Positions 5,279 through 33,508 of a DNA stretch of 33,508 nucleotides are shown here, piece by piece. Numbering within the stretch: position 1 is the first letter of the stretch; each line of letters starts with the position of its first letter. Under the pieces are notes generated by a model. That model did not search any database. It was given only the letters and a program-made list of their open reading frames with translations, and was not told the DNA's origin. The stretch comes from a virus (Duplodnaviria > Heunggongvirae > Uroviricota > Caudoviricetes), in the IMG/VR virus record IMGVR_UViG_648276643_000011. The stretch is one strand, 5' to 3'. Position numbers and translations under genes: made by a program.

Positions 5279-5367
5279 GAAACCAGAACATGCACACACA
5301 AAAAAACCGCTTGCCATGCCGCAATCGGTCAGGTTACATTTCCGCTGCACCTCATAAAACGGGTGCC

Positions 5368-5556
5368 GGGATTCTCAACCCGATACAGAGCAAAGCGCAT
5401 AACCGCGCTAGCGGTTTTTTTGTGCGTACTGTATTGCCACGTCTTTTTCGCGTCAGAATTATGGCGGGGCGTACGGGGCCGACTTCGGTCGGGCCGGATT
5501 CTTTGCTCTCCGGTGTTGAGAACCCTGTACGTCTCGCCACCCCGAGATTCTCAACT
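5368..5556 (+). ncRNA. Candidate structured cis-regulatory RNA / sRNA region in a 320 bp non-coding gap
   Basis: 28 nt arm 5368-5395 is near reverse complement of 5501-5525; embedded intrinsic terminator; UUCG-tetraloop GC hairpin 5475-5496; 11 bp outer stem 5463-5473 with 5528-5538; motif GATTCTCAAC three times (5370, inverted 5515, 5546). Strand assumed from flanking genes. Confidence 0.3.
5401..5423 (+). terminator. Rho-independent terminator
   Basis: AACCGC-GCTA-GCGGTT stem-loop followed by TTTTTTT. Confidence 0.55.
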
Positions 5557-5600: not shown

Positions 5601-5831
5601 ATGGCAGACCGCAAACAGCACCGCGCTATCGCGGAGCGTCGTCACATCCAGACTGAAATCAACCGCAGACTTTCCCGCGCATCACGCGTCGCGCAAATCA
5701 TGCACATCAATATGCTGCATGAGCGCAGCCACGCACTATCAAACATTTATTCCGCCTCTGTTTTCAGCTATCTGGCGGATGATCTGCACGAGTTTCAACA
5801 GCTCATCCAGCAGCAAAACAAACTCCATTAA
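5601..5831 (+). CDS. Hypothetical protein, predicted coiled-coil
   Basis: 76 aa, RBS AAGAGG 7 nt upstream. Confidence 0.45.
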   Translation: MADRKQHRAIAERRHIQTEINRRLSRASRVAQIMHINMLHERSHALSNIYSASVFSYLADDLHEFQQLIQQQNKLH

Positions 5832-9174: not shown

Positions 9175-10134
9175 ATGAAAATTTGTATCGACGACGGCTC
9201 CACCAACATCAAGCTGGCATGGACTGAGAACGGCGAACGCCGCAACGCCATCAGCCCGAACAGCTTCAAGTCGGAATGGTCTGCGCCGTTCGGTGGCACG
9301 CAGCCCGCGAACTACATGCTTGATGGCGTGCGCTATGGTTTTGATCCTGTCAGCGATCGCTTTGTCCAGACGACCGACACGCAATACCAATACAGCGATG
9401 TGAATGTCATTGCCATTCATCACGCGCTGGTCAAATCAGGCATCACGCCACAGGAGGTGGATGTGGTTGTCACCCTGCCACTGAGCGAGTATTTCGACAC
9501 AAACGCACAGCCGGACATGGCCAACATCAACCGCAAAAAAGCGAACGTTATGCGCCCGGTGGAGTACCAGAACGGCAAAGCATTCACTATCCGTAACGTA
9601 CGGGTTATGCCTGAATCTATTCCGGCTGGCTTTAAAGCACTGGCTGACATGAGTCCGTTTGAATCCCTGCTGATTGTGGATTTAGGCGGAACCACGCTGG
9701 ATGTGGCAAAGGTTCAGGGACAACTGGCAGGTATCAGCCAGGTGTTTTGCGATCCACACGTAGGCGTTTCCCTGATGGCCGATGCAGTACTGTCGGTGAT
9801 GGCCACTAACGGTATGCGTACCAGTCACCACATCGCCAATACCATTATCGAACATCGCCATGATGAAGCTTGGCTGCGCCAGCACATCCACAATGACGCG
9901 CATTACGCCAGCCTGATGGCGGTTATTCGTGAAAAGGAAGAAACACTGAAACAACGCGTGATCCGCGCGCTGGCGGGTTTTTCGGGTTACGGGCGGGTGA
10001 TGGTTGTCGGTGGCGGAGCGGAGATTGTGGCACCCGCTATCCGCGAAGCCTGCGGGGTTAATGCGACTTTCATCGCGGACGGGGTGCCACAGTTTGCTCT
10101 GGTTAATGGGCTGTACGCAATGGACAAGGAGTAA
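9175..10134 (+). CDS. parM: ParM/StbA-family actin-like ATPase
   Basis: 319 aa; N-terminus MKICIDDGSTNIKLAW matches ParM phosphate-1 motif; further ParM-like blocks (YSDVNV.A.HHAL, MPESIPAG, LI.DLGGTTLD, GGGAE) alignable by eye to plasmid R1 ParM (from memory); RBS AAGGA. Confidence 0.8.
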   Translation: MKICIDDGSTNIKLAWTENGERRNAISPNSFKSEWSAPFGGTQPANYMLDGVRYGFDPVSDRFVQTTDTQYQYSDVNVIAIHHALVKSGITPQEVDVVVTLPLSEYFDTNAQPDMANINRKKANVMRPVEYQNGKAFTIRNVRVMPESIPAGFKALADMSPFESLLIVDLGGTTLDVAKVQGQLAGISQVFCDPHVGVSLMADAVLSVMATNGMRTSHHIANTIIEHRHDEAWLRQHIHNDAHYASLMAVIREKEETLKQRVIRALAGFSGYGRVMVVGGGAEIVAPAIREACGVNATFIADGVPQFALVNGLYAMDKE

Positions 10135-25919: not shown

Positions 25920-26536
25920 TGGCATTCAGAATGAGTGAACAATCACGTACTGTAAAAATTTATAACCTGCTGGCCGGAACTAATGAGTTTATTGGTGAAG
26001 GTGACGCATATATTCCACCTCATACAGGGCTGCCAGCCAATTCTACAGATATCGCCCCACCGGAAATTCCTGCTGGCTTTGTGGCAGTTTTTAACAGTGA
26101 AAATGAATCGTGGAATATTGTTGAAGACCATCGTGGTAAAACGGTCTATGACGTGGCATCGGGGGACGCGTTGTTTATTTCTGAACCCGGACCGCTACCA
26201 GAGAATGTCACCTGGTTGTCGCCAGCAGGGGAGTATCAGAAGTGGGACGGCGTATCCTGGGTGAAGGATGAGGAAGCAGAAAAACTGTTTCGGATACGGG
26301 AAGCGGAAGAGAAAAAGGCAAGGTTGATCCAGGAAGCAACAGATAACATCGCAATTCTGCAGGATGCAGTTAATCTTGAAATAGCAACAAACGAGGAAAA
26401 TTCACAACTGGATTCCTGGAGAAAATACAGAGTATTAGTGAGTAGAATTGACACCAGTACAGCTCCGGATATCGTATGGCCAGAGCTGATGAATCAGGGT
26501 TATGTGCGGGAGGACGAGCAGATAACTTCAGACTGA
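25919..26536 (+). CDS. G: Tail fibre assembly chaperone (gpG-like)
   Basis: 205 aa; ATG overlaps H stop (TAATG); position after H. Confidence 0.8.
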
Positions 26537-27063
26537 AATTTAGTGATGAATGTTGAATCATCTGGAATATCATGCAATACCAATGCATGAGCACCTATTG
26601 TGACATTGTTTCCTATACGCACTTTGCCACCAAGAATGGTGGCATTACAACCAATGGTCACATTATGTCCTATAACAATATCCATATCATTAAAATCACC
26701 ACGCAGCCCAATAGTTACCCCTGGTTTTATTGAACAATTTTCACCGATTGTTACTTTGTGACCGATAACAACACTGTTGAGATAAGAAATATCAAAGCCT
26801 TTCCCTATATTTACAGTTAAAGGGACTGTTACATTATATTTATCAAGAATGAAACGTTCTATTTTCCCCGCAATCTTCCGACAGTATCCGCCTTTATCAA
26901 AAAGGTATTTGGCTATGCGCCACCAAAATAAATAACGAACTCTTCTATGTTTTATTGCGCGAACAATTGCCTTTCGCCAGGAGAAAGGACGCTCGCTACC
27001 GATTACTTCATAGTGAATACAATCTTTAAGTTCATTAATATTCATATCTCTATTATTCAGCAT
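26500..27063 (-). CDS. Hexapeptide-repeat (left-handed beta-helix) acyl/acetyltransferase at the Z/fun variable locus
   Basis: 187 aa; consecutive hexapeptide repeats [21 protein letters not shown] ... [34 protein letters not shown]; about 35 percent GC; convergently overlaps the 3' end of G by 37 bp. Confidence 0.75.
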
Positions 27064-31112: not shown

Positions 31113-31625
31113 TCAGCCAAGCCCGAGCGCGGAACGGATGCGATCGGGCACAATGTCCTTGCCGTCCTTCCGGTAAATGAAGTTCAGCAGGTCAATCTCC
31201 CACAACGGGCGATCGTTAACACTCAGCTTGTAGTAGGTGTTTTTAATGGCGTAAGTGTGTGATGTGGCTTCGCCCTGTTTGGCTTCCCCCATATCAATTT
31301 CCGTCACACGTCCGCGCATTTCGACTTCATACAGGTCGCTTTCATCATCGGTGTAGTATTCACCCGCAAAACGCAGTAGCGTGCCGTCAATCGTGCCGCC
31401 ATACTTCAGGAACAGCTCACGAACTGCGCCCCCCATGACAAAGCTCGCATCAAGCGCGGAGTCGTCCAGACCGAGATCAATACTTACCGCCCCCATCATG
31501 CCACCACCCCGGTAGCTGTCGGTTTTGCGCGTCAGTTTAGGCAGGGTGACGGACGTCACCTTACCCACTTCGTTTTCACCATCCACAAACAGCGTAAAAA
31601 AGCGAAGATGTTTTGGTACAGCCAT
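31113..31625 (-). CDS. FII: Tail tube protein FII
   Basis: 170 aa; size and position after sheath; by-eye match to P2 FII. Confidence 0.9.
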   Translation of the reverse strand: MAVPKHLRFFTLFVDGENEVGKVTSVTLPKLTRKTDSYRGGGMMGAVSIDLGLDDSALDASFVMGGAVRELFLKYGGTIDGTLLRFAGEYYTDDESDLYEVEMRGRVTEIDMGEAKQGEATSHTYAIKNTYYKLSVNDRPLWEIDLLNFIYRKDGKDIVPDRIRSALGLG

Positions 31626-32809
31626 CAGGCACCTCCCAGCACCGCAAATGCGGGACCAAAGAATTCATCAGTAAACGACTGGTAAAGCTCCATGTCTTCC
31701 AGCGGAGGAACGGGCGTATATTTGTAGCGAATACGCACACGCCCCTGACGTAAATTCGTGGTGCTGTTATCCACGATGTCATACCAGCACTCCGCGCCAA
31801 TCAGTTTCCCGGCAGTAACCAGTGAATCCAGTTTTGCCCTGATGGCACTGATAACATCCTTCACGTTCGCAGGCGTCAGTGGACTGTCGATGGTTTCAAA
31901 CTGCGCTTCCGCAATTGAATCAGCCAGCACCTGTGCAGTTCGGGTATACACCTCAAAGATGTAGGCGTTCGTTTCCGGTGTGCGGTTGCCCCAGAAGCGG
32001 AACCCGTTGCGACGAATAATGGTCGTGATTTCTTTGTTGTTGAGGCTGTTGGCATCGCTGTCTTCGGCCTGCAACGACCAGAACACATGCCTGGACATCC
32101 CCAGCACATTTTTAACCGGAACATTGGACAGTGATTTGTGCCATCCCTGCTCATGGTCAATGTACGCACGAAGGCCGCACGCATAGGCAGGCGCGGGGAA
32201 CGTTTCGTTTTTGCCACTTTTCGGGTTGTAGGCGATGAAGTCCGGCCATAAGAGCATCACCTCACGTTCATTGAATTTCTGGCGGTAGGTAATCGCCTCA
32301 GCCATCGTGTTACAGCCGTGACATGAGGCATACACAAACGCGCGCAGTTTACCCGCAATCACGCACAGGGATTTTGTTACCGCCTCCGTATCCAGCTCCG
32401 GCGCGGCCAGAATACGCGGACGGTATCCGATGCTTTCATCCTGCTCTGCAACAAGCAGCGCATACATCCCCGTATAGCTGCCGTCAGATTCAGAACCACC
32501 GATAACCAGTTGATCCTGCGTTTTTCCGTCTTCTTCTTTGTGTTCAGCCACGCGAACGACGATCACCTTTGTGCTCACCTGGTCTGCGATGGCCTTAAGC
32601 GCACGATAAAGCGTCCCCGTTGTTCCGCATTTTCCCAGCACGTCATTGACGCGGGTCAGCAGTGTGGGCTTGTTCAGCGGGAACAGCTCCGCGTCCGCAT
32701 CATCCGCCATTGCCACGATACCGATAACACTGGAATCAACATCATTAATCGCTGTTACCAGGTCGGTACTTTCCGTAACACGGGCACCATGAAAACGAGT
32801 TTCACTCAT
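31625..32809 (-). CDS. FI: Tail sheath protein FI
   Basis: 394 aa; strong by-eye identity to P2 FI (DADAE.FPLNKP, KLRAF.Y, YRQ.F, WPDF, EQGWHK.LSNV, IRR.GFRFWGNRT, NYTRTAQV, YTPVPPLE). Confidence 0.9.
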   Translation of the reverse strand: MSETRFHGARVTESTDLVTAINDVDSSVIGIVAMADDADAELFPLNKPTLLTRVNDVLGKCGTTGTLYRALKAIADQVSTKVIVVRVAEHKEEDGKTQDQLVIGGSESDGSYTGMYALLVAEQDESIGYRPRILAAPELDTEAVTKSLCVIAGKLRAFVYASCHGCNTMAEAITYRQKFNEREVMLLWPDFIAYNPKSGKNETFPAPAYACGLRAYIDHEQGWHKSLSNVPVKNVLGMSRHVFWSLQAEDSDANSLNNKEITTIIRRNGFRFWGNRTPETNAYIFEVYTRTAQVLADSIAEAQFETIDSPLTPANVKDVISAIRAKLDSLVTAGKLIGAECWYDIVDNSTTNLRQGRVRIRYKYTPVPPLEDMELYQSFTDEFFGPAFAVLGGA

Positions 32810-32966
32810 AGCTTCAGCCCCTTGTATCCGTTAAATGATTCGGCAACAATCATCACCCACCACGCGCGTAATCTCACCCCTGCGCCGTTCTCCCGACCCG
32901 GCGACAACAAAAAGCAGTAACCCCCTCCGCACGCACATGCGACCATGCCGCACAGGGAGGGAACAG

Positions 32967-33234
32967 ATGACCGATACCACCATGCAATTGCTCAGTCAGG
33001 GCACAGACCCCGTGAAAATGCCGGATTTTGATATTCTCGCGGAGGGTAAAACGCTGTCAGGCGTGGCAGAGCGCCTGATGAGCCTGTCACTGACCGACAA
33101 CCGGGGATTTGAGGCGGACCAGCTCACCATCACGCTGGATGATGCGGATGGTCAGTTGCAGCTACCGCCACGGGGCGCGCGCCTGACGGTTCTCATTGGC
33201 TGGAAAGGAGAACCGCTGACAGAAAAAGGCACTT
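32967..33234 (+). pseudogene. D: Tail protein D, 5' fragment only (about 88 codons), interrupted by IS30
   Basis: MTDTTMQLLSQGTDPV ... LTDNRGFEADQL ... LDDADGQ ... GWKGEPLTEKG matches the P2 gpD N-terminus; RBS GGGAGGG upstream; homology ends where the IS30 terminal repeat begins. Coordinates plus or minus 1 nt. Confidence 0.8.
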
Positions 33235-33508
33235 GTAGATTCAATTGGTCAACGCAACAGTTATGTGAAAACATGGGGTTGCGGAGGTTTTTTGAATGAG
33301 ACGAACATTTACAGCAGAGGAAAAAGCCTCTGTTTTTGAACTATGGAAGAACGGAACAGGCTTCAGTGAAATAGCGAATATCCTGGGTTCAAAACCCGGA
33401 ACGATCTTCACTATGTTAAGGGATACTGGCGGCATAAAACCCCATGAGCGTAAGCGGGCTGTAGCTCACCTGACACTGTCTGAGCGCGAGGAGATACGAG
33501 CTGGTTTG
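33234..33508 (+). mobile_element. IS30 insertion sequence, left end (continues beyond window)
   Basis: Terminal inverted repeat TGTAGATTCAATTGGTCAACGCAACAG followed by the IS30 transposase start. Coordinates plus or minus 1 nt. Confidence 0.85.
33296..33508 (+). CDS. insI: IS30 transposase, N-terminal portion (partial at window end)
   Basis: MRRTFTAEEKASVFELWKNGTGFSEIANILGSKPGTIFTMLRDTGGIKPHERKRAVAHLTLSEREEIRAGL is the IS30 transposase N-terminus as recalled from memory. Start plus or minus 1 nt. Confidence 0.85.
   Translation, partial: MRRTFTAEEKASVFELWKNGTGFSEIANILGSKPGTIFTMLRDTGGIKPHERKRAVAHLTLSEREEIRAGL

Follow-up and report, generated by a model that had tools for sequence, protein, structure and literature searches.

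Amber mutants of P2 have established that gene D is required for tail assembly. In the P2 record, D is the last gene of an operon on one strand, the pF tail operon, where it is preceded by FI, FII, E, E', T and U. Among the relatives of P2, P88 responds to mitomycin and makes plaques, and its contractile tail is normal (PMC5285337), and Sp13 is a defective P2-like prophage (PMC2669165). The insertion sequence that concerns us here, IS30, is the prototype of its family and prefers near-palindromic hot spots, producing 2-bp target duplications (PMC9333248).

The stretch of DNA that we analysed, referred to below as the window, comprises 33,508 nucleotides of IMG/VR virus record IMGVR_UViG_648276643_000011. 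It holds a P88-like prophage (genus Xuanwuvirus, P2-related) flanked by yecA on one side and by the leuZ-cysT-glyW tRNA genes on the other, and it ends inside an IS30 copy that interrupts D. Very probably, a single copy of IS30, a common E. coli insertion sequence, has moved into D of this prophage by recent, hot-spot-targeted transposition, with a predicted loss of tail function. D::IS30 is in itself ordinary and is already annotated in public genomes; what is modestly new is that, in a prophage family found widely, the dinucleotide in D acts as a hot spot that IS30 enters again and again.

The D fragment and the IS30 copy

The features around the interruption are collected in Table 1. The D frame opens with the ATG at 32967 and, according to the ORF list and its translation, extends for 267 bp. 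Homology to D ends at the 33233/33234 junction, exactly where the IS30 inverted repeat begins, as an earlier note on this DNA had proposed; the fragment has 89 codons, compared with the "about 88" given there. In BLASTP the 89-residue fragment aligns with residues 15-85 of P2 gpD (42/71 identities, 59%, E = 3e-26), and it matches PHROG 52, 'tail protein' (E = 5e-32). Pfam and NCBIfam searches with the 89-residue fragment alone returned no match. The identity of the complete gene can be taken from IS-free relatives. The fragment is identical to the first 267 bp of intact D in E. coli E5, and the intact 369-residue homologue, from an IS-free relative with an identical 5' part, shares 49% amino acid identity with P2 gpD over its full length. 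Over its residues 91-349, this homologue hits the Pfam family PF05954 (Phage_GPD, 'Phage tail baseplate hub (GPD)'; E = 4e-17; 62.7 bits at a cut-off of 30.1 bits), and it also matches 6u5h_C, a chain of the solved R2 pyocin particle (E = 8e-41).

Table 1. Features at the interrupted D gene and next to it (positions in the window)
Feature	Position	Strand	Basis
Tail sheath gene FI, first of the minus-strand block FI-FII-E/E'-T-U	31625..32809	-	ORF list, annotation of relatives, Pfam Phage_sheath
FI/D intergenic region, 157 bp, native to P88-like phages	32810..32966	.	contiguous at 97-98% identity in P88 and relatives
D 5' fragment, codons 1-89 of 369	32967..33233	+	BLASTP against P2 gpD, PHROG 52
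Chimeric ORF, 110 codons (D 1-89 plus 21 encoded by IS30)	32967..33299	+	translation
Left half of IS30 target, GACAGAAAAAGGCACT; final CT (33232-33233) is the left copy of the duplication	33218..33233	+	CT repeat in L006 and MEI003; target profile
IS30, first 275 of 1221 bp	33234..33508	+	identical to IS30 of MEI003; ends at window end
IS30 left inverted repeat (IRL), 26 bp, TGTAGATTCAATTGGTCAACGCAACA	33234..33259	+	exact match
IS30 transposase, N-terminal 71 codons, helix-turn-helix region	33296..33508	+	Pfam HTH_38

Beyond 33233, D is absent from the window, in keeping with the truncation that had been proposed. The D frame enters IS30 for 21 codons and stops at 33297-33299, and the exact 110-residue chimeric product is called in four public assemblies, GCA_000176695.2 among them. 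The TGA of the chimeric ORF overlaps the transposase ATG (33296-33298) as ATGA. We speculate that through this overlap, late transcription and translation of the D fragment could become coupled to IS30 transposase synthesis on induction, an effect that would depend on the reading frame. In many IS-free genomes, PGAP calls the 1110-bp D ORF as an 801-bp CDS, 'contractile injection system protein, VgrG/Pvc8 family', and the same records carry an added, spurious partial hypothetical CDS on the opposite strand of D; the full D ORF is open there (loci L003 9001-10110 and L004 9001-10110).

On the IS30 side of the junction, the exact 26-bp left repeat occurs once in the window, where chance would give 0 matches, and the left and right terminal repeats of the element agree at 23 of 26 positions. 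The transposase frame that was expected after the repeat is also there: its ATG lies at 33296, the frame stays open for 71 codons to the window end, and this N-terminus matches Pfam HTH_38 (E = 1.6e-8), while an NCBIfam search with the 71-residue fragment gave no match. Over the 275 bp that fall within the window, the element does not differ from the full 1221-bp IS30 of strain MEI003. In the closed genome of this strain, a complete IS30 of 1221 bp lies between the same junctions, flanked by the same CT duplication; its transposase, of 383 residues, is recognised by NCBIfam NF033563 ('IS30 family transposase') with 276 bits. The left repeat, the helix-turn-helix N-terminus, the 2-bp duplication and the near-palindromic A-rich/GC target all agree with the description of the family prototype (PMC9333248), and no difference from it is visible across the 470 assembled bases of the window's copy.

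Scaffold GL884529.1 of GCA_000176695.2 (locus L006) agrees base for base with the final 10,542 nucleotides of the window. The end of the window is an assembly gap inside IS30 in this source scaffold, where a run of 335 N begins directly after the base equivalent to 33508. Past the gap, the scaffold continues with 195 bp identical to the 3' end of IS30, including the right repeat, then with CT, and then with 843 bp of the 3' part of D. The same CT forms the last two bases before IS30 and occurs again after its right end in this scaffold, in MEI003, in EDL933 and in others, and a 2-bp target duplication is what is expected of IS30 (PMC9333248). Removing the IS and one CT in silico restores a D ORF of 369 codons. 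Downstream of D follow a SEC-C/YecA-like gene, ogr, hok and the leuZ-cysT-glyW tRNA genes. Thus the extension past the window that the earlier note had called for yields the other IS30 end, the duplication and an undamaged 3' part of D; with both IS ends present, CT duplicated and the remainder of D directly behind, the event is a simple insertion.

Host prophage and gene order

Window positions 1-33233, which begin at the integrase gene, have one difference from the IS30-free prophage of E. coli E5, which occupies the yecA-leuZ interval; it is a synonymous base change in gene I. Three complete genomes match positions 8509-33234 at 100.0%, and this match ends at the IS boundary. Immediately around IS30 there are 0 differences over 1600 bp upstream and 843 bp downstream. 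Given this near-identity to IS30-free prophages, the insertion in D is recent. The E5 annotation shows the P2-type morphogenetic, lysis, replication and integration genes all intact, and the three pseudogenes flagged in that record are accessory ORFs. Among the genes of these four classes, D::IS30 is the sole lesion evident from the comparison.

Compared with P88, the window has 97.5% nucleotide identity over 2.45 kb spanning the FI/D junction. P88 and its relatives (Peduoviridae, genus Xuanwuvirus) show 97-98% nucleotide identity over FI, the spacer and D, and ogr and hok follow downstream likewise. One difference lies in D, which is split in the window prophage but intact in the inducible, plaque-forming P88 (PMC5285337). 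A further difference concerns the slot between G, the tail-fibre assembly gene, and U: P88 has an invertible tail-fibre segment with a DNA invertase, whereas the window has a hexapeptide-repeat acetyltransferase-like gene (26500-27063, minus strand). The cargo of this slot varies by relative, being elsewhere a serine O-acetyltransferase with a macro-domain protein, or an invertible fibre segment with DNA invertase. The D-ogr slot varies among relatives too, and can hold a SEC-C/YecA-like gene or a GmrSD or HxsABCD system. Both slots look like hot spots for moron or defence genes.

The arrangement of the tail genes differs from that of P2 as well. In P2, D is co-transcribed with FI to U from the same strand, whereas in the window FI to U lie on the minus strand and D is divergent from them on the plus strand. 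The intervening 157-bp spacer was scanned for a TGT-N12-ACA late promoter and for a sigma-70-like site, and neither was found. The earlier note had suggested that IS30 might be connected to an inversion of the tail block, a suggestion that we now discard. The FI(-)/D(+) order occurs in the IS30-free prophages of E. coli E5, 12E115 and O18, and in isolated phages of the genus Xuanwuvirus, including P88, PhiR44_2, Shae_phiSM and others. The divergent order is thus native to the P88-like lineage and unrelated to IS30, and the unusual gene order of such a prophage should not be taken as damage.

Two readings of the junction would make it something other than a simple insertion. One takes it as an assembly artefact produced at a chimeric contig end, or takes the IS30 as a terminal fragment without a functional transposase, and this we regard as very unlikely. 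Both IS ends join matching halves of D with a 2-bp duplication in one scaffold, and the identical junction is present with a complete IS30 in the closed MEI003 genome and in four further assemblies. What speaks for an artefact is that the window ends inside IS30 at a gap, with 275 bp of the element within it, and that the gap is estimated at 335 bp: with 470 of 1221 bp assembled in the source genome, a single IS30 needs 751 bp. The earlier note had named a short fragment without transposase as a finding that would overturn it. In this respect, the helix-turn-helix N-terminus is present and a complete copy occupies the same site in MEI003, but the middle 751 bp in the source are N. The other reading attributes the order of the tail genes to IS30 activity, through an IS dimer or intramolecular transposition that inverted the FI-U block and left the D insertion as one end of a larger rearrangement. 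IS30 does make inversions and deletions via junctions of its inverted repeats (PMC9333248), and the block is inverted relative to P2; even so, we give this reading almost no credence. Besides the viable and IS30-free phages and prophages of the same order, IS30 lies 267 bp within D, away from any block boundary, and the two parts of D directly flank it with a 2-bp duplication. A search of the whole window for a second IS30 end or an inverted-repeat scar found none, and no inverted repeats were found at the ends of the FI-U block. We therefore retain a simple insertion into D; the case serves as a reminder that such insertions can hide behind contig ends inside an IS.

Recurrence at the same dinucleotide

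Of 5426 complete E. coli genomes, 1109 contain an intact D of this lineage, with an identity of at least 95%. IS30 interrupts the gene in 241 of the 1384 complete E. coli genomes that carry the D lineage, about 17%, a proportion strongly inflated by the sampling of O157:H7. In 240 of the 241, mostly O157:H7, the element lies at the same dinucleotide in reverse orientation; these include O157:H7 EDL933 and Sakai (Sp13/CP-933T), ETEC H10407 and an O114:H49 strain. The forward orientation seen in the window is represented among complete genomes by MEI003 only, and beyond them by the four assemblies with the 110-residue product and one IMG/VR contig (loci L007/L042, L008 and L009 among them). The Sakai record annotates 'prophage Sp13, P2-like phage' and an IS30 at the D site.

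Sp13/CP-933T of Sakai and EDL933 and the prophage of H10407 are among the closest counterparts of the window prophage, sharing with it the same P88-like D, the same dinucleotide and the same CT duplication, but with IS30 in the opposite orientation. Losses mark the O157:H7 lineage, in which 49 bp of the IS copy, the 3' part of D from about +75 onwards and most head genes are missing, whereas the window prophage is otherwise complete. The 3' part of D is intact in 13 reverse carriers, for example ETEC H10407, the O114:H49 strain and O157:H7 strain 493/89. On this comparison, the window insertion appears to be independent of the O157:H7 one, as well as recent. Two mechanisms that might have produced these arrangements were considered and set aside. 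IR-targeting, in which a second IS30 enters beside a resident one, gives only tandem IRL-IRR junctions (PMC9333248) and was rejected as the source of the opposite orientation. An adjacent deletion mediated by IS30 was rejected for the missing part of D, as the deletion starts about 75 bp past the IS end and is not flush with it.

Some copies in D have themselves been altered. The EDL933 copy (L002 8425-9596) is 1172 bp long, with a 46-bp deletion over the transposase start and a further 3-bp deletion, and is probably non-autonomous. In SMN013SH2 (L184 7425-9958), the IS30 copy in D is split by an IS3-family element, and in an O157-type IMG/VR contig (L046), 2488 bp lie between the halves of D.

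To ask what the site offers to IS30, we compared it with known targets. Olasz et al. reportedly defined a 24-bp hot-spot consensus for IS30 in 1998; our comparison is not to that consensus but to an empirical profile, built from the flanks of about 170 loci with an IS30 left end in genome, viral and metagenome collections. D-derived sites were excluded from it, leaving 22 unique sites with a duplication and 34 half-sites, a sample that is modest, partly redundant and drawn in many cases from related IS3-family genes. Read outward from the IS end, these non-D sites share the half-site consensus T(-13) n A A n A A n G C n R Y. On both sides, the D site, GACAGAAAAAGGCA-CT-TACATTGTTGATGA, fits this consensus, and both half-sites score positively.

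The D site scores 11.3 bits, compared with a mean of -20.9 and a 99.9th percentile of 7.2 for the 44.7-kb background of the E5 locus, where 5 of 44,696 positions reach its score. When each real site is scored without its own family in the profile, the median is 14.8 bits and the interquartile range 9.4-18.0, which places the D site at their 27th percentile, and the few other positions of the locus that score as high have no known insertion. Within the whole D gene, the top-scoring position is exactly the duplicated CT. In contrast, D of P2 has no IS30-like target at the equivalent position; the best score in that gene is 7.1 bits and lies elsewhere. The profile is crude, and the match to it supports a hot spot, short of proof. 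In the literature that we searched, we found no description of the D site as an IS30 hot spot.

The commonest target in the sample of about 180 loci, orfA of IS3-family (IS600-like) elements, resembles the D target in sharing AAAAAGGC, then three nucleotides that end in the duplicated pair, then TTGATG, all in the same register. Like the natural IS30 hot spots LHS and the IS600-like orfA site, the D target takes the element in both orientations. The orfA target lies in the region encoding 'EILKKA', with ATATTAAAAAAGGCTAC / ACCGCGCTCTTGATG around the insertion point (L013, L020, L024, L026 and many other loci), and has been hit in both orientations in several diverged homologues. Many sites have mismatched flanks, which suggests recombination between IS30 copies.

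Probable independent insertions and predicted loss of tail function

The two orientations imply at least two events, and the identity of the window to IS-free prophages points to a third. Prophages that carry D::IS30 are found at three chromosomal sites (leuZ, ihfA and flk) and fall into about nine flank haplotypes, which suggest several further independent insertions. The independence of the forward events is read from these haplotypes, and prophage recombination, or the IEE-promoted excision that has been reported for IS30-family elements (PMC9330008), could blur them. As we see it, one IS30 copy, oriented so that its transposase is read in the D direction, would have entered the CT dinucleotide of D codon 89 by ordinary hot-spot-targeted transposition, and repeated entry in either orientation would be expected from near-palindromic targets.

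As to the consequence, the 89-codon fragment is without nearly all of the hub-domain region (PF05954, residues 91-349), and we infer that the only product possible is the 110-residue chimeric peptide, which would likewise lack nearly all of the hub domain. Because of the genetics of P2 and the structural role of the hub family, it is reasonable to expect that assembly of the baseplate and tail should fail, and that no infective particles would be formed unless D were supplied in trans or the IS precisely excised. Excision, replication, head assembly and lysis should remain. An apparently complete P2-type prophage of 33 kb would then have to be scored as tail-defective on account of a single, potentially reversible lesion. 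For completeness predictors, and for work on prophage 'grounding' in E. coli, D::IS30 is a lesion that can be expected to recur, as in Sp13 of O157:H7 and in ETEC H10407.

Against this account stand one alternative on the history of the insertion and one on its effect. The P2-like prophages are mosaic, and it could be supposed that a single, ancient D::IS30 has been inherited vertically and moved by homologous recombination, that the window copy was recombined in, and that there is no hot spot. All forward carriers do share the identical junction and the 110-residue product, and excision aided by IEE (PMC9330008) could make the IS-free alleles secondary. Yet recombination cannot give both orientations at one dinucleotide, and the window flanks agree fully with IS-free prophages for 33 kb; from those of MEI003, the other forward carrier, they depart as close to the IS as 28 bp upstream and 99 bp downstream. 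Carrier flanks differ by 1-2.75%, compared with 0-3 of 1221 bases among the IS copies, making the IS about ten times less diverged than its surroundings. The halves of D are undecayed in every carrier with both flanks, and the D site fits the IS30 target profile. A single ancient origin is thus improbable in our view, and we prefer repeated entry: codon 89 of the P88-like D is likely to be a natural hot spot for IS30 that has taken at least three independent insertions, and probably at least eight, in both orientations and in unrelated E. coli lineages, which would amount to a recurrent, sequence-programmed route to tail loss that keeps cargo and immunity genes. The alternative on the effect is that the prophage is still infective, either by taking D from a second P2-like prophage or by assembling the N-terminal peptide with a restarted C-terminal fragment. 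Some E. coli genomes carry 2-4 copies of the D lineage, up to four matches to D being found, which makes complementation possible there; in O157 Sakai, other prophages help the defective Sp13 so that it can still excise, replicate and be packaged (PMC2669165); and the 3' part of D has an 801-bp CDS in the PGAP annotation. The window has no second D, and the 801-bp call is also made in genomes with intact D, where it looks like an annotation habit. We know of no precedent for a hub protein split at residue 89. Continued infectivity is accordingly about as doubtful to us as the single ancient origin, and loss of tail function stands as the expected outcome.

Two further regions of the prophage deserve mention. 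Rfam matches at gathering level identify isrK (RF01394, 63 bits) at window positions 5347-5421 and a C4 antisense RNA (RF01695, 78.5 bits) at 5457-5544, both on the plus strand and just upstream of the gene annotated in E5 as 'derepression protein' (about 5601-5831). This region looks like a c4-antirepressor module in the style of P1/P7 within a P2-type prophage, and it may relate to the mitomycin inducibility that has been reported for P88 and Sp13 (PMC2669165, PMC5285337). Following the E5 annotation, ParM-like and 'plasmid partitioning/stability' genes (9175-10134, plus strand, and the following ORF) adjoin the replication endonuclease gene; partition genes are unusual for an integrating phage of the P2 type.
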